Virus record (IMG/VR): IMGVR_UViG_3300006098_000001
Reading direction: 5' to 3' (one strand)
Length of the DNA: 64,000 nucleotides
Source: a virus
Position 1 is the stretch's first letter; each line of letters opens with the position of its first letter. The translations under genes and the position numbers were made by a program. Positions 57,970-64,000 of the stretch are shown here, in pieces. The notes under the pieces were generated by a model that made no database searches, was not told the origin of the DNA, and saw nothing but the letters and a program-made list of their open reading frames with translations.

Positions 57970-58593
57970 ATGGCTCAATTATTCTTTAAATATGGGGCGA
58001 TGAATGCTGGCAAGTCATTGTCCCTATTGACTACAGCACACAATTATCAAGAACAAGATAAAGATGTTTTGATCATGACCAGTGCCATAGATGATCGCTA
58101 TGGCGTTGGAAAGGTTTCAAGTCGAGTAGGATTAAGTTGTGAAGCACAACCAATTAAACAAGAAGATAACGTAATTGAATTGATTACAAAGTTATTGAAG
58201 TTAGACACAGAAGGAAAAACTGTTTGGCCACACTGTATTTTAATCGACGAAGCTGAATTCTTAACCGCACAGCAAGTCGTTGATTTAGCTAATATTGTTG
58301 ACACATATAATATTCCCATAATTTGTTATGGCTTACGGACTGATTTTCAATGCAATCTGTTTGAAGGCTCAAAAGCATTATTTGAAGTGGCCGACAAATT
58401 AGAAGAAATCAAAACAGTTTGTCAATGGTGTGACCACAAGGCAACAATGAATTTAAGAATGGTAGATGGCGCTCCAGCTTATGATGGAGATCAAATTCAA
58501 ATTGGTGACCAGGAATATATTTCGGTTTGCCGATACCACTACACAAATCCATTAATTCAAGTAACTAAGAATAAAAAAGAAAAGGAAGTATGA
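57970..58593 (+). CDS. tdk: thymidine kinase
   Basis: P-loop GAMNAGKS, plus IDEAEF, and a C-terminal Zn motif (CQWC...CRYHY). Confidence 0.85.
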   Translation: MAQLFFKYGAMNAGKSLSLLTTAHNYQEQDKDVLIMTSAIDDRYGVGKVSSRVGLSCEAQPIKQEDNVIELITKLLKLDTEGKTVWPHCILIDEAEFLTAQQVVDLANIVDTYNIPIICYGLRTDFQCNLFEGSKALFEVADKLEEIKTVCQWCDHKATMNLRMVDGAPAYDGDQIQIGDQEYISVCRYHYTNPLIQVTKNKKEKEV

Positions 58594-59219
58594 TATTTAT
58601 TTTGAACACTAAGAATAACAACGGCGCAAAGATTGCATTAACAGCTATGGGAGCATTCGCACTAGGTCTTGTAGCAACAGGAACAACAGCAAATGCCGAC
58701 ACAACTATTGACAGCAACCACGTGCAAGTAGAAGCGGGTGACACATTATCTGCCATCGCTCAAAAGCACGGAACCGACGTTGATACTCTTGTGCGTGAAA
58801 ATCATATTGCAAACAAACATTTAATTCACGTAGGAGATAAGTTGGTTGTTATGCCTGGTGTAAAGAACACCGATGTAAACGGGAAAGATACTGATAATCA
58901 TGTAACGAACCCTGTAACTACACCAACTAGCGACCAACAAACAACTACAACTAATGACACACCAGTTACTCAACAAGCACCCGCTACAAGCGGTATTTCA
59001 AGCAACTCAGCTAAGGAAGCTATCGCCCAAAAGGAATCTGGCGGTAGTTACACAGCTACAAACGGTAAGTATATTGGGCGCTACCAACTTGATGCGAGTT
59101 ATTTAAATGGTAATTACTCAATCGAAAATCAAGAAAAAGTGGCTGAACAATATGTGGCTCAAAGATACGGTAGTTGGGACGCTGCTTTAGCATTCCATAA
59201 TGCACATGGCTGGTACTAA
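58590..59219 (+). CDS. secreted LysM protein with an APF/IsaA-SceD-like transglycosylase-type C-terminal domain
   Basis: Signal peptide (...TGTTANA/DT), a LysM domain, a T/P-rich linker and AIAQKESGGSYTATNGKYIGRYQL...AHGWY. Confidence 0.6.
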   Translation: MIFILNTKNNNGAKIALTAMGAFALGLVATGTTANADTTIDSNHVQVEAGDTLSAIAQKHGTDVDTLVRENHIANKHLIHVGDKLVVMPGVKNTDVNGKDTDNHVTNPVTTPTSDQQTTTTNDTPVTQQAPATSGISSNSAKEAIAQKESGGSYTATNGKYIGRYQLDASYLNGNYSIENQEKVAEQYVAQRYGSWDAALAFHNAHGWY

Positions 59220-59269
59220 ACTTAATTTCATTGTACTTAATTAACTAAGTATGATATTATAATTATGTA

Positions 59270-59410
59270 AACAAAAAGAGCCATGCTGCAACATGACTCT
59301 TTCAGCGTCATCGGATTTTAGCGGTGGCAAGTTACTAACGTCATTTATTTTTATTAAACGAAGACTTCAGAAAACACTGCCCCGGTTCCAAAAGGCGGTG
59401 TTTTTCTTTT
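59270..59410 (+). ncRNA. candidate antisense sRNA of locus A
   Basis: A -10 TATAAT at 59258-59263 with an upstream TG. The 5' hairpin is shared with locus B. A terminator ACACTGCC...GGCGGTGT followed by TTTTCTTTT lies at 59374-59410. The RNA would be antisense to the 3' part of the minus-strand ORF. Confidence 0.4.
59272..59301 (-). terminator. terminator of the locus A mRNA (bidirectional hairpin)
   Basis: On the minus strand: AAGAGTCATG-ttgcag-CATGGCTCTT followed by TTTGTTT. It is homologous to the hairpin at 63013-63041. Confidence 0.6.
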
Positions 59411-59625
59411 GCATCTCTGTCTAATTCTGTGTCATTCGGTGGAGATTTCCACGTCAACACAACCCTTTTTGCAGCTCGGATTACTGTGCCCACTGCATCA
59501 ATACAGTAAGCCACACTGAGTAACAATAGGCGTAGAGCCAGAAATATTCCGACCAAGCCTAGTATCGTTACAATCATCCCAACCGCCCAGGGGCAACTTG
59601 ATTGCAAAAGTCCAATTAAGGACAA
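59341..59625 (-). CDS. small membrane protein (toxin candidate, locus A)
   Basis: TTG lies 13 nt after the conserved CGTAAGAAGGGAG leader. TM segment VGMIVTILGLVGIFLALRLLLLSVAY. Confidence 0.4.
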   Translation of the reverse strand: MSLIGLLQSSCPWAVGMIVTILGLVGIFLALRLLLLSVAYCIDAVGTVIRAAKRVVLTWKSPPNDTELDRDAKEKHRLLEPGQCFLKSSFNKNK

Positions 59626-59742
59626 ACTTCACGGCGCACTCCCTTCTTACGGATAGAGGAGAGTACCACGAACTTACGCTCATAGTGACCACCATCCTTC
59701 CATGGATTCGCGCCACCGCCATTAAATCTTTTTGACATTAAT

Positions 59743-59751
59743 ATTATATCA
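59743..59751 (-). promoter_or_regulatory. extended -10 promoter TGATATAAT (locus A mRNA)
   Basis: The minus strand reads cgTATGATATAATATTaat, identical in core to the 62608-62622 promoter. Confidence 0.55.
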
Positions 59752-59862
59752 TACGATTACAATAAAACAGTTAAACTATAGAATAATACTGCTCACAGCG
59801 TCTAAAATAATCCTTGACAAGTTTTGACTCCCACTAATTTACAAATGTGATACAATAACATT

Positions 59863-59929
59863 AAGGAAATCCAAATACGGATTCCTACCTTCCTAAGATG
59901 GCTCCACTTTATGTGGGGCTTTTCTTTTT
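59863..59929 (+). ncRNA. candidate short leader/sRNA upstream of the small recombinase
   Basis: An extended -10 TGATACAAT at 59848-59856. A hairpin GGAAATCC/GGATTCC is present. A terminator GCTCCAC-tttat-GTGGGGC followed by TTTTCTTTTT lies at 59901-59929. Confidence 0.35.
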
Positions 59930-59945
59930 ACTTATTTTTAGTAAA

Positions 59946-59974
59946 GAAGTGTTATTTGTTTTTAATAACACTTC
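59946..59974. promoter_or_regulatory. 11-7-11 perfect palindrome, candidate tyrosine-recombinase core site
   Basis: GAAGTGTTATT-tgttttt-AATAACACTTC. Confidence 0.5.
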
Positions 59975-60018
59975 CTAATTTAAGCTATTTTAGCACTCAT
60001 TTTTCTGGTAAAATAAAG

Positions 60019-60054
60019 AAGTGTTATAATTCTATATATCAAAAAATAACACTT
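60019..60054. promoter_or_regulatory. second inverted pair of the AAGTGTTAT motif, overlapping the recombinase promoter
   Basis: AAGTGTTAT-18 nt-ATAACACTT. The left arm overlaps the extended -10 gTGtTATAAT (60022-60030). Confidence 0.45.
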
Positions 60055-60069
60055 GTATTAGGTGGTTTT

Positions 60070-60663
60070 ATGAAACAGTTAGTCTTACCCATAAAAGACT
60101 CTTATGTGTTATCTGAAGTACAAGATACGTTACTAAATAACTTTAGAGCTGGTGTTAGAAACTACACTATCTTTCAAGTTGGAAAAGCTACCTTACTTCG
60201 AGTAAGTGACGTACTCAGATTAAAACAAGAAGATGTCTATGATAAATATGGTGAGGTAAAAAGAAATGCATTTATTAAAGACAAAAAGACGGGGAAGCAA
60301 AATACATTGTATTTAAAACCTGTCCGTGAAGATTTAGAAAATTACAAAAAATGGTTAGAAGAAAATGATTATTATTTAACAACGCCCTGGTTATTTCCTT
60401 CAACTACCAGACCCAACAAACATATTGATGAAAGGCAATATTATACGGTCATGCACGAAGTTGGAGATCTCTTGGACATTCCATATCTTGGAACACACAC
60501 TATGAGAAAGACTGGGGCATATCGAGTTTATGTACAGAGTAATTATAATATCGGATTAGTCATGTCATTACTTAACCATTCATCAGAAGAAATGACCCTG
60601 AGATATTTGGGATTAGATCAAGTATCCCGAGAAAGATTGTTGGACAAGGTCGATTTTGGGTAA
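60070..60663 (+). CDS. small (197-aa) tyrosine recombinase, catalytic domain only
   Basis: ATG follows AGGTGG. The catalytic pattern is R (LLRVSDVL), HxxR (GTHTMRKTG) and H...Y (LNHSSEEMTLRYLG). Confidence 0.7.
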   Translation: MKQLVLPIKDSYVLSEVQDTLLNNFRAGVRNYTIFQVGKATLLRVSDVLRLKQEDVYDKYGEVKRNAFIKDKKTGKQNTLYLKPVREDLENYKKWLEENDYYLTTPWLFPSTTRPNKHIDERQYYTVMHEVGDLLDIPYLGTHTMRKTGAYRVYVQSNYNIGLVMSLLNHSSEEMTLRYLGLDQVSRERLLDKVDFG

Positions 60664-61655: not shown

Positions 61656-61958
61656 GCCTTATTATTATTCCTGCTTAGACGAAACGAAAAATTAATTAAC
61701 ATATAGTTGATCATTTAGATTGCGCTGAGAGCTTGTTTTTAATGCTGAGTTGCAAGAAAAACTTCGGTAAAATAAAAAGGTAGATATTTTCCCACAAATA
61801 TCTCACCCCAATATTCATATACTAAAATCTCCCTCAAGGAATTTTAGTGAAAATATGTTTCTTTATAACCTTTTGACATTCTACAATGAGTAGGATGTCT
61901 TTTTTTATACTCTGAAGCAGGATAAATGCCAAGTTTTATGTTATGATATAATTAGGGT

Positions 61959-62045
61959 ATTATATGCTGCACAGTAAGAACCTAACAAAAATAGACATCT
62001 ATCATTACCTCAATTGAAGTAGTTAATAGATGCCTATTTTTCTTA
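61959..62045 (+). ncRNA. candidate sRNA
   Basis: An extended -10 TGATATAAT at 61944-61952. A terminator AATAGACATCTAT...ATAGATGCCTATT followed by TTTTCTTATTT. No plausible ORF. Confidence 0.35.
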
Positions 62046-62147
62046 TTTCTATCAATTGTCCCCCTGTGCAGGACACAAACCACCAATTTTATCATAACAT
62101 TAAAATAATACTATGATCAAGTATGACTAATAGGGTATAATATACCT

Positions 62148-62221
62148 AGTTACTATTTAGAGTAACTATTTTCATCTTCATTGGAGCTCCAGGACATCTT
62201 CCCAGTCCTGGACTTCTTTTT
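62148..62221 (+). ncRNA. candidate sRNA
   Basis: A -10 TATAAT at 62136-62141. A 5' hairpin AGTTACT/AGTAACT is present. A terminator TCCAGGAC-9 nt-GTCCTGGA followed by CTTCTTTTT. Confidence 0.35.
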
Positions 62222-62483
62222 ATCTATATGATATTTTTCACATTTTGTGCATAGTAAAAGACCGTCCTCGTATAACTTTGGCGAGTTGCAGGACGATCTT
62301 TTATTAGTTAATCTGTAACATGGCCACCGTCTTTTTAACGGGCCTGCTTTTTGCGTATCTATATTATAGCATGAAAGAAGGGAATTGAGTAGTCGGTGAA
62401 TACTTAGTGAGGTGTTCATGAGTCTTTTGTGTTATAACCAGTCATTAAAATTTTTATTTTAATGCGACGAAAATAAGGCAAAC

Positions 62484-62541
62484 AAAAAAACACCATCTAA
62501 TAAAGTTTTGACCGACTTTAGATGGTGCTTAGTCTCTACAT
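62484..62541 (-). ncRNA. candidate short sRNA sharing its 3' module with sRNA B
   Basis: A minus-strand -10 TATAAT (plus-strand 62548-62553). A 10-bp hairpin CACCATCTAA/TTAGATGGTG followed by T7. Confidence 0.35.
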
Positions 62542-62610
62542 TGTCTTATTATACACTATAGAAAAACTTAGTGTAAGTTGTAATCATTTAATTTCAAATA
62601 ATCTTTCCTA

Positions 62611-62619
62611 TGATATAAT
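62611..62619 (+). promoter_or_regulatory. extended -10 promoter TGATATAAT (locus B mRNA)
   Basis: cTATGATATAATATTt, the same core as the locus A promoter. Confidence 0.55.
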
Positions 62620-62751
62620 ATTTATGGATTATAAGGAAGCGTTGGTGGTTCCTAATCTCTGGTTTATAATACTGGAGGTGCTGCCAATGAAAGCAGTTAA
62701 ACAAACTTGACCCTAAGTTCAATTTTCGTAAGAAAGGAGAATGGCGGGTAA

Positions 62752-62901
62752 ATGAGTTTCAACAGCCTAGACCCATTTGAAGGCCTTGCAAAGGTTATTC
62801 GGGCTATGCGTGGACTCGATACCGGTGTGCAATATGCCACCCTTGCCACATTTGTAATTGTGGTTGGCATTATTGCGTTTACTATTTGCTATACGCACTA
62901 G
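62752..62901 (+). CDS. 49-aa membrane peptide (toxin candidate, locus B; below the ORF-track cutoff)
   Basis: ATG lies 12 nt after the conserved CGTAAGAAAGGAG. MSFNSLDPFEGLAKVIRAMRGLDTGVQYATLATFVIVVGIIAFTICYTH. Confidence 0.45.
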   Translation: MSFNSLDPFEGLAKVIRAMRGLDTGVQYATLATFVIVVGIIAFTICYTH

Positions 62902-62914
62902 CGTTAACAGCAAA

Positions 62915-63046
62915 TAAAAAACACCATTCGTGAGTTTAGCAGCGAACGATGGTGTTTAGTCTCAACGTCATTAAGAGATTAGGCATTATCAACAATACTT
63001 ATTAATCTCAGGAAGAGCTATGCTGCAACATAGCTCTTTTTGTTTA
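62915..63046 (-). ncRNA. candidate antisense sRNA of locus B
   Basis: A minus-strand -10 TATAAT (plus-strand 63054-63059). The 5' hairpin is shared with locus A. A minus-strand terminator CACCAT...ATGGTG followed by T6 lies at 62915-62954. Confidence 0.4.
63013..63041 (+). terminator. terminator of the locus B mRNA (bidirectional hairpin)
   Basis: AAGAGCTATG-ctgcaa-CATAGCTCTT followed by TTTGTTT. Confidence 0.7.
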
Positions 63047-63127
63047 CACAAGTATTATAACATCTTATGTTCGTTACGTACATAAAAATTAAAAAATCTT
63101 CTTGACATTGTTATTTTGTAATAATTA

Positions 63128-63364
63128 CTATGCTGCTTGCTCCATTTTAGTTAACTTAGTCCTCATCATTGCAGCTGCATGGCAATAAATTTCGTAACAA
63201 GGATCATCTTTTTCAAAGATTAATGCTTCGTTTAAATTAGGTGTCAAATATACTTCATTAACTTCAATATCAGAGGTCTTCATACCAAATCTACTCGTTA
63301 AGTGCTTGCCATCAACTCCACATACATATAACTGTCCAACCTTGATTAATTGAACTACTCCCGC
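63128..63364 (-). pseudogene. 3' fragment of an unknown gene abutting the IS end
   Basis: The frame is open from 63364 down to the stop at 63128-63130, with no start codon or SD at its 5' edge. That edge coincides with the IS right-end region. Confidence 0.35.
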
Positions 63365-63520
63365 TTATCTAAACCTACGGTTTAATGCTTGAAGTGGGAG
63401 ATTCTGGAAACATCGCATACTTACCCTACTGATTCTGAACGAACCTTCAAGCAGAGGTTACGACTATTAACCAAGGCTCGTCCCGAGCCTAACTTTATCT
63501 ATCGGATAGCTAATCCTTTT
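63362..63520 (-). ncRNA. omegaRNA / right-end (RE) region of an IS200/IS605-family element (extent approximate)
   Basis: Directly 3' of, and overlapping, the tnpB stop. Stems are AGGCTCG-gga-CGAGCCT, a long-range CTTGAAG/CTTCAAG pair, and AAACC-gta-GGTTT. Confidence 0.45.
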
Positions 63521-64000
63521 TGCAAGATGACTTGTGCAGCGTTAATATCACGATCTAAATGTTTACCACAGTTTGGACAATCCCACTCACGTACCGCTAA
63601 CCATTCCGATTTATTCAATCCTAACCGATGATTATTCTTCCCACAATTAGCACAAATTTGGCTAGTATATGACGGATTGACCTGAATAAGCTTTTTACCG
63701 TACCAGTCACACTTATATTGCAATATATCTACTAATTTTGACCAGCTAGCGTTAGCGATTCCTCTAGCTAAATGGTGATTTTTCATCATTCCCTTAGTAT
63801 TAAGTTTTTCCAACACAATAATGTCGTACTTTTTGACCAATTTAGTAGTGAATTTTTGTAGCTGTTCCAACCGTTGGTTGGCAATCTTTTGCCGATACTT
63901 CGCCACCATAATACGAGCTTTCTGATAATTCTTAAAATCGTCTAATTGCCGTGGAACTAACACTTTATTATGATGATCCCAGGCGATTTCCTGCTGGGCC
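63499..64000 (-). CDS. tnpB: TnpB (RNA-guided nuclease of IS200/IS605), C-terminal part; N-terminus lies beyond the window
   Basis: The RuvC/Zn-ribbon region reads NPSYTSQICANCG...WDCPNCGKHLDRDINAA. The frame stays open to nt 64000. Confidence 0.8.
   Translation of the reverse strand, partial: AQQEIAWDHHNKVLVPRQLDDFKNYQKARIMVAKYRQKIANQRLEQLQKFTTKLVKKYDIIVLEKLNTKGMMKNHHLARGIANASWSKLVDILQYKCDWYGKKLIQVNPSYTSQICANCGKNNHRLGLNKSEWLAVREWDCPNCGKHLDRDINAAQVILQKGLAIR

Follow-up and report, generated by a model that had tools for sequence, protein, structure and literature searches.

A probable type I toxin-antitoxin module with a convergent, 3'-overlapping antisense RNA on a Limosilactobacillus reuteri megaplasmid

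In the type I toxin-antitoxin systems txpA/RatA, bsrG/SR4, and Enterococcus faecalis EF3263, toxin mRNA and antitoxin RNA are convergent and overlap at their 3' ends, and both this layout and its mechanism have been described (PMC6562991, PMC2887945). Fozo et al. reported TxpA-family toxins in Lactobacillales, together with a 110-nucleotide (nt) RNA overlapping the 3' untranslated region (UTR) of EF3263 (PMC2887945). Here we describe locus A, a small element in a 64,000-nt stretch of DNA from IMG/VR virus record IMGVR_UViG_3300006098_000001 (the whole stretch is called the window below). In common with the three systems named, locus A has a small hydrophobic putative toxin open reading frame (ORF) and a predicted convergent antisense RNA within the range of ~110-220 nt. 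As in the txpA/RatA class, predicted complementarity is confined to the 3' end of the mRNA, each predicted terminator lies inside the partner unit, and the mRNA is predicted to be structured (PMC6562991, PMC2887945). We conclude that locus A is probably a type I toxin-antitoxin module on a megaplasmid of Limosilactobacillus reuteri. Sequence comparisons support the view that its architecture is a known one, that of the txpA/RatA class, and that the toxin families of locus A and of its companion, locus B, are new.

The window DNA matches L. reuteri megaplasmids, and a search of the phage collection gave no DNA match; judged by these matches, the window is L. reuteri megaplasmid DNA, and locus A resides on a plasmid instead of a prophage. 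Synteny with plasmid p53608_1 extends over thymidine kinase, a LysM protein, locus A, and a tyrosine recombinase, in the same order. Annotation usually overlooks type I toxin genes, which are small; in the PLSDB gene table of p53608_1, no gene is entered for the locus A region.

On the minus strand, locus A has TATGATATAATATT (Table 1), an extended -10 promoter because TG precedes the hexamer (59743-59748). Promoters of this type are kept in all copies of types A, B, and C. A leader of ~111 nt with GGAAGGATGGTGGTC and CGTAAGAAGGGAG leads to a TTG start codon at 59625, 13 nt past GGGAG, which opens a 94-amino-acid (aa) ORF with one strong hydrophobic segment; a terminator hairpin plus T-run, GAGTCATG/CATGGCTC, closes the unit. 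The leader plan is common to types A, B, and C, and identity of the leader among A subtypes is ~95-100%. On the plus strand, a TATAAT at 59258-59263, overlapping TGaTATTAT at 59252-59260, precedes an inner hairpin whose long T-run, TTTTTCTTTT, occurs on the plus strand only. The elements that had been proposed in a preliminary description of the window are all borne out here, at the coordinates given there or no more than a few bases away, as is the claim that locus B (here taken as 62591-63099) holds, in mirror orientation, a counterpart of every one of them. That description had also suggested aligning the two loci and searching for further paralogues: their 3' halves match over ~190 nt (nhmmer, E 1.6e-7), and decayed relatives lie at 62238-62400 and 62466-62545. 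Its comparison with txpA/RatA and bsrG/SR4 holds for the convergent 3'-overlap layout but not for the protein, which is outside the TxpA/BsrG family, nor for the setting, which is a plasmid instead of a prophage. Three signature motifs of the loci were found at loci A and B only within the window, where 0.00, 0.15, and 0.08 occurrences are expected by chance (dinucleotide-preserving shuffles).

Comparison of the subtypes A1 (the window and metagenome contigs), A2 (p53608_1, L012, L019), and A3 (L035, protein P0011) indicates that the locus A ORF is coding and under purifying selection. The proteins align without gaps over 77 codons and have 39-47 of 77 residues in common (51-61% identity). Between A1 and A2 (p53608), differences in codons 14-72 number 25, 14, and 41 at codon positions 1, 2, and 3, and the overall ratio of nonsynonymous to synonymous divergence (dN/dS) of the ORF is ~0.17. 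The TTG start is kept in every A copy, whereas the neighbouring GTG and an internal ATG are not. A hydrophobic segment at about residues 13-40, with a maximum 19-residue hydropathy of 2.4-3.4 across subtypes, is followed by a basic C-terminal tail, with the conserved pieces CI(D/N)A, (V/I)(V/I)RAxK, K(S/D)PP, and DAKEKHR. The conserved protein ends near the last of these, at codon 77, giving a core of ~77 of the 94 aa; the final ~17 codons traverse the inner hairpin, and protein conservation is lost there. The product is thus a small hydrophobic protein, as type I toxins are, although its 83-94 aa across A copies stand at the long end of the range.

Other frames were considered as well. The two remaining frames of the A ORF region showed stop codons or no conservation. 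We rejected a GTG-started frame of 45 aa, whose start is GTA in p53608 and L033, an ATG start at codon 17, which is missing in relatives, and leader frames of 74 and 40 aa, which showed no protein conservation and are both shifted by one base in A3. An ORF of 43 aa on the plus strand, inside the antisense RNA, was not conserved.

The ORF of locus B (49-54 aa among B-type copies) is likewise coding by the same kind of evidence: codon-position differences from the FN041 variant are 15/6/26, with a dN/dS of 0.13, and the ORF is annotated as a hypothetical protein in plasmid YLR001. Likeness between A and B is limited to the promoter, the Shine-Dalgarno (SD) sequence, and the 3' RNA elements, and the intervening ORFs are unrelated. 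Several of the metagenome B ORF variants P0004-P0006 and P0009 have the TAG stop changed to CAG and continue, at 61-75 aa, into the inner hairpin; they run into the hairpin like the A-type ORF, and the C-terminal extension therefore looks unconstrained. An exhaustive HMMER search with the A protein returned only close relatives and one 52%-identical subtype (A3), with L. reuteri as the source organism wherever one is recorded. A profile search with the B family gave 41 protein clusters, all without a Pfam domain and, where named, entered as "hypothetical protein" from Limosilactobacillus. When genome_contigs and metagenome_contigs were scanned for a 23-nt terminator/promoter motif, true relatives appeared in L. 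reuteri only, the other matches being limited to the motif itself.

A third locus type, C, links this group to a recognized toxin family. On the YLR001 plasmid, a C locus lies directly upstream of locus B and has the same TATGATATAAT promoter, the G-box GGACGGTGGCC at the same leader spacing, the same SD-like box followed by ATG, and, in its 3' part, a GGCCACCGTC box and an antisense TATAAT. Its ORF encodes the 29-aa peptide MSAYQALMLMLAFATFIIALLTFIFNFIG, which matches Pfam Hol_Tox (PF16935) with an E value of 2.1e-11 and 43.9 bits against a cut-off of 23.3 bits, and more weakly the NCBIfam model of the PepG1 type I toxin. We take the Hol_Tox motif to be an N-terminal M-S/T-x-Y-E/Q-x-L-M within the membrane helix. 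As a paralogue with the same layout passes Hol_Tox, the family to which TxpA and BsrG belong, the resemblance of locus A to TxpA/BsrG systems exceeds mere analogy. The window itself holds a C-type remnant related to the intact YLR001 locus (nhmmer E 8.5e-40). Its toxin ORF and most of its promoter are gone, with the stub ctatatgatat left at 62223-62233; an 88-aa minus-strand ORF (62153-62419) spans the remnant and is probably spurious.

Six module copies have a lost or disabled ORF, and five of them retain the antisense half only: the C remnant in the window, pAN417A, LL7, and the B and C remnants of L022. In LL7, the 5' half is replaced and a stop codon is present. The sixth copy, L019, carries a frameshift only, which shortens the ORF to 45 aa. 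One-sided decay of this kind is the pattern expected of a harmful ORF guarded by its partner, and we take it as indirect evidence of such an arrangement. A lone B2-type inner hairpin in the window is nearly identical to that of the FN041 module (nhmmer E 8.8e-9). Together with L022, it suggests that a module can lose or gain its toxin part by recombination between hairpin copies.

The strongest alternative to a toxin is an ordinary, non-toxic small membrane protein, such as a holin-like protein or an envelope accessory acting together with the adjacent cell-wall enzyme, that is tuned by a cis-antisense RNA and forms no addiction module. We consider this unlikely, if not without merit: a LysM gene is always found beside locus A and a B-type homologue of L. 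mucosae sits upstream of a GH25 lysozyme gene, and holins are similar in size (83-94 aa here) and in having a charged C-terminal tail. There is also a precedent, since some candidate type I toxins, YhzE-2 among them, proved non-toxic on testing (PMC2887945). However, searches of Pfam and PHROGs placed neither A nor B in a holin family, the LysM gene (58590-59219) and the ORF are convergent and not co-transcribed, and locus B of the window, FN041, L035, and the second L. mucosae copy have no adjoining cell-wall enzyme. That the ORF has been lost repeatedly while the antisense half was kept agrees with a harmful product, and the Hol_Tox/TxpA-family paralogue on the same RNA layout points in the same direction.

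The case for an antisense RNA gene comes from a survey of 14 modules, some of them remnants, of types A1-A3, B1-B2, and C. A -10 box on the opposite strand stands at a constant distance from the mRNA terminator in all 14, while the flanks vary; the predicted antisense terminator, too, is conserved in every copy. In 10 of the 14 copies the box reads TATAAT, five times with a TGn extension; the remaining four, of types A1 and A2, have TGaTATTAT, overlapped 3 nt downstream by a TATAAT. A TATAAT just beyond the terminator was also read directly in the two homologues from L. mucosae. The inner hairpin has a strong T-run in the antisense direction only in the copies read (A, B, and an L. mucosae homologue). 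From these signals we predict an RNA of ~140 nt, wholly complementary to the 3' end of the mRNA, so that the antitoxin RNA would converge on the toxin mRNA as in the known systems. Its predicted fold has terminal stem-loops with weaker central pairing. The comparisons are in keeping with a convergent, 3'-overlapping pair of mRNA and antisense RNA around a small membrane ORF.

The same 3' block could in principle comprise two terminators, one for the ORF and one for the neighbouring gene, with the opposite TATAAT a coincidence of AT-rich DNA. In favor of this, the LysM gene ends at 59219 reading toward the hairpins, so that the inner hairpin could be its terminator, a simple consensus scan was silent on the antisense promoter, and the region is AT-rich. 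We nevertheless think it very improbable that no antisense RNA is made: the -10 position is fixed in 14/14 copies, which span three types and two species, although flanks and upstream genes differ, TGn precedes TATAAT in five copies and TGa precedes TATTAT in the four A1/A2 copies, and the antisense half persists as a unit without the ORF beside different upstream neighbours.

That a mobile or invertible segment has loci A and B as its terminal inverted repeats and is acted on by the tyrosine recombinase encoded between them (59911-60663), as their mirror orientation around ~2.8 kb with a gene for this Phage_integrase-family protein might suggest, can be dismissed almost entirely because A and B occur separately on other plasmids (A stands beside the same recombinase gene with no B nearby in p53608_1 and QGHZ01000002, and B in YLR001 and FN041 has no recombinase among the adjacent annotated genes) and their similarity is found only in the promoter, SD, and 3' RNA elements.

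In every lineage, the mRNA itself is predicted to be closed by pairing between leader and 3' UTR. In the minimum free energy fold of the locus A mRNA, the two are joined in a long-range 5'-3' closing helix in which GGCGGTGGC of the leader and GCCACCGC of the 3' UTR take part, and the 3' arm of this fold-back falls inside the region covered by the antisense RNA. In a consensus of eight sequences all pairs of the A fold-back are kept, with one change from G-C to G-U. Pairing in the outer terminator stem is kept despite two-sided changes (GAGTCATG/CATGGCTC compared with GAGCTGTG/CGCAGCTC), two stem pairs being changed on both sides in 3/8 sequences of the consensus fold. The 29-bp 5'-3' helix of locus B, where the minimum free energy fold has such a helix as well, is 97.7% paired across three sequences, compared with 29-46% for slid controls, and shows two compensatory double changes; its duplex energy gives z = -4.7 against shuffles. 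For type C the corresponding shuffle test was not significant with a slice that left out the C partner box. An L. mucosae homologue of different primary sequence has its 5' end closed on the 3' UTR by 25 pairs in the minimum free energy fold, and on the same plasmid matching boxes were read by eye in a second copy. For the G-box helix across types, MAFFT chose a register other than ours, and we therefore make no claim of compensatory changes between paralogue types.

In every module type, a strong SD-like box with an ATG 6-8 nt on lies well upstream of the toxin SD (59681-59697 on the minus strand and 62674-62710 on the plus strand of the window, L023 1094-1109, and L036 ~1425-1520). In locus B, this ATG opens an upstream ORF (uORF) of 6-7 codons (MKAVKQT*), and the uORF of L. 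mucosae overlaps the toxin start. Translational coupling, a standby site, or a decoy are candidate roles.

A closing helix between the 5' and 3' ends, as predicted here, and an upstream box of SD plus ATG are not among the features that we found for the txpA/RatA class in PMC6562991 and PMC2887945. Further differences from that class are that the A (83-94 aa) and B (49-54 aa) proteins fall outside Hol_Tox, A being longer than known members, and that the host element is a plasmid here but a prophage or the skin element there. With hok/sok of plasmid R1, locus A shares its plasmid location and the predicted 5'-3' closure of the mRNA. In hok, the two ends of the full-length mRNA pair with each other and so close the molecule. 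The SD and ATG in the leader also recall the reading frame that is translationally coupled to hok (PMC6562991). Unlike Sok, which pairs with the 5' leader, the antisense RNA of locus A would pair with the 3' end; the host is Gram-positive, and there is no sequence similarity to Hok. The par system (fst/RNA II of E. faecalis pAD1, with Fst/Ldr in Lactobacillaceae) is similar in being plasmid-borne in Lactobacillales, in its convergent transcription, and in having a small single-pass membrane toxin, but Fst toxins have only ~30 aa. RNA II of par pairs with the 5' translation-initiation region through direct repeats. In locus A, no such 5' complementarity of the predicted antisense RNA to the mRNA was seen, and similarity of the promoter regions makes the 5' ends of the two RNAs alike, not complementary.

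From the DNA we infer transcription of both RNAs, toxicity of the protein and rescue from it, the participation of an RNase, and a role in addiction. The extended -10 promoter would drive a minus-strand mRNA of ~470 nt for a small single-pass membrane protein, and the convergent plus-strand promoter just beyond the mRNA terminator would give rise to the ~140-nt RNA. The 5'-3' helix, a TTG start codon, and a spacing from the SD as long as 13 nt would keep the full-length mRNA closed and poorly translated. Pairing of the antisense RNA with the 3' end of the mRNA, the 3' arm of the fold-back included, would lead to cleavage of the duplex and decay of the mRNA, and it may also refold the region of the ribosome-binding site, as in txpA/RatA and bsrG/SR4 (PMC6562991). 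Once the plasmid is lost, the antisense RNA would run out before the mRNA, provided that it is the less stable of the two, as in known systems; the cell would then make the membrane protein and be harmed by it, on the assumption that the module acts in post-segregational killing.

Several observations weigh against this interpretation. Type I toxins typically have fewer than 60 aa (PMC6562991), compared with 83-94 aa for the A ORF. The A and B proteins had no Pfam match at E values up to 10 and none in NCBIfam, PHROGs, or PADLOC; they thus matched neither Hol_Tox (TxpA/BsrG) nor Hok in Pfam, nor Fst/Ldr in Pfam or NCBIfam, nor a holin family in Pfam or PHROGs, and an Rfam scan of the whole window gave no match at the gathering score. 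The simple scan for consensus promoters and terminators flagged neither of the two locus A promoters nor the outer terminator, which counts mildly; the promoters escaped it because their -35 boxes are weak. The LysM gene is codirectional with the antisense RNA, and so the inner hairpin could also terminate that gene. As to structure, covariation support is thin: the partner segments of the A fold-back are nearly invariant across sequences, and the A 5'-3' duplex energy does not differ significantly from shuffles (z -1.6, 35/500). The covariation in B comes from three sequences only, and its observed level was reached by 51/500 shuffles.

Beyond a single toxin-antitoxin module, it is possible, and we suggest it tentatively, that plasmids of Limosilactobacillus have in common a single conserved RNA chassis, which has received at least three unrelated ORFs for membrane toxins. 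This chassis would comprise the extended -10 promoter, the leader G-box with the upstream SD plus ATG, the fold-back, the inner antisense terminator, and the antisense promoter abutting the mRNA terminator, and the ORFs would be Hol_Tox (29 aa), the B family (49-54 aa), and the A family (83-94 aa). The antitoxin RNA might then open or reset a hok-like 5'-3' lock, in addition to promoting decay. Since the fold-back arm lies inside the antisense target, the RNA would in this case control translation at a distance.

Table 1. Positions of the predicted elements of locus A, locus B, and the module remnants in the window
Feature	Position	Strand	Remarks
Locus A, toxin-mRNA promoter	59740-59753	-	predicted start near 59736; identical 14-mer in locus B
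Locus A, 5' leader	59626-59736	-	G-box GGCGGTGGC at 59712-59720; SD-like GGATGGTGGT + ATG at 59681-59697
Locus A, toxin SD	within CGTAAGAAGGGAG, 59639-59651	-	
Locus A, ORF	59341-59625	-	94 aa
Locus A, inner hairpin	59374-59410	+	predicted antisense terminator; retained in decayed copies
Locus A, 3'-UTR partner GTAACTTGCCACCGCT of leader G-box	59320-59340	-	within antisense overlap
Locus A, mRNA terminator hairpin	59269-59302	-	also 5' stem-loop of antisense RNA
Locus A, predicted antisense RNA	59270-59412	+	~140 nt; bounds from promoter and terminator
Locus A, antisense promoter	59231-59263	+	-35-like TTGTAC at 59231-59236; -10 TGaTATTAT/TATAAT at 59252-59263
C-type remnant	62238-62400	+	toxin ORF deleted; hairpins, GGCCACCGTC box, and antisense -10 (62363-62368) kept
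Lone B2-type inner hairpin	62466-62545	+	remnant of further module, directly upstream of locus B promoter
Locus B, toxin mRNA unit	62609-63046	+	promoter at 62609-62622
Locus B, leader GTTGGTGGT/CCTAATCTCT	62641-62660	+	
Locus B, SD-like box and 7-codon uORF	62674-62710	+	
Locus B, toxin SD	62727-62739	+	
Locus B, ORF	62752-62901	+	49 aa
Locus B, inner hairpin	62915-62957	+	
Locus B, 3' partner	62974-62993	+	
Locus B, mRNA terminator	63011-63045	+	
Locus B, antisense gene	62906-63064	-	extended -10 TGtTATAAT at 63054-63062; predicted RNA from ~63047 to 62906

The surroundings of the modules offered some further observations. A LysM protein gene adjoins locus A in all A1/A2 copies, and the GH25 lysozyme gene just downstream of the L. 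mucosae B-type homologue occupies L036 1880-2824; such cell-wall enzyme neighbours may be a coincidence or a hint of a holin-like role. Just beyond the antisense promoter of locus B, a 51-aa ORF (63128-63283, minus strand; MKTSDIEVNEVYL...TKMEQAA) has homologues in the same place beside modules in LL7, L022, and L035, and it had no family match in Pfam, NCBIfam, or PHROGs. On the minus strand, 63499-63963 encodes the C-terminal portion of a TnpB of the IS605 type (OrfB_IS605 and Cas12f1-like TNB domains), and the gene continues past the window end; a TnpB gene is also found near A-type modules in the metagenome contigs L027 and L028. Finally, the region 61934-62104 has a further pair of convergent promoter-like boxes, plus-strand TTATGATATAAT and minus-strand TTATGATAAAAT, which are separated by ~130 nt and share a hairpin with T-runs on both strands (~61990-62045). 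From this pair, two RNAs of ~90 nt that overlap each other are predicted; a membrane ORF is not evident.

In conclusion, we report here a probable type I toxin-antitoxin module, locus A, together with paralogues that combine the same RNA layout with unrelated ORFs. If confirmed, these loci would add two toxin families that are so far restricted to Limosilactobacillus. That unrelated putative toxins share one RNA layout with a TxpA/BsrG-type paralogue suggests that the coding part is exchangeable. L. reuteri is widely used as a probiotic and as an engineering host. Modules that stabilize its megaplasmids would matter for plasmid curing, for vector design, and for the interpretation of differences among strains.

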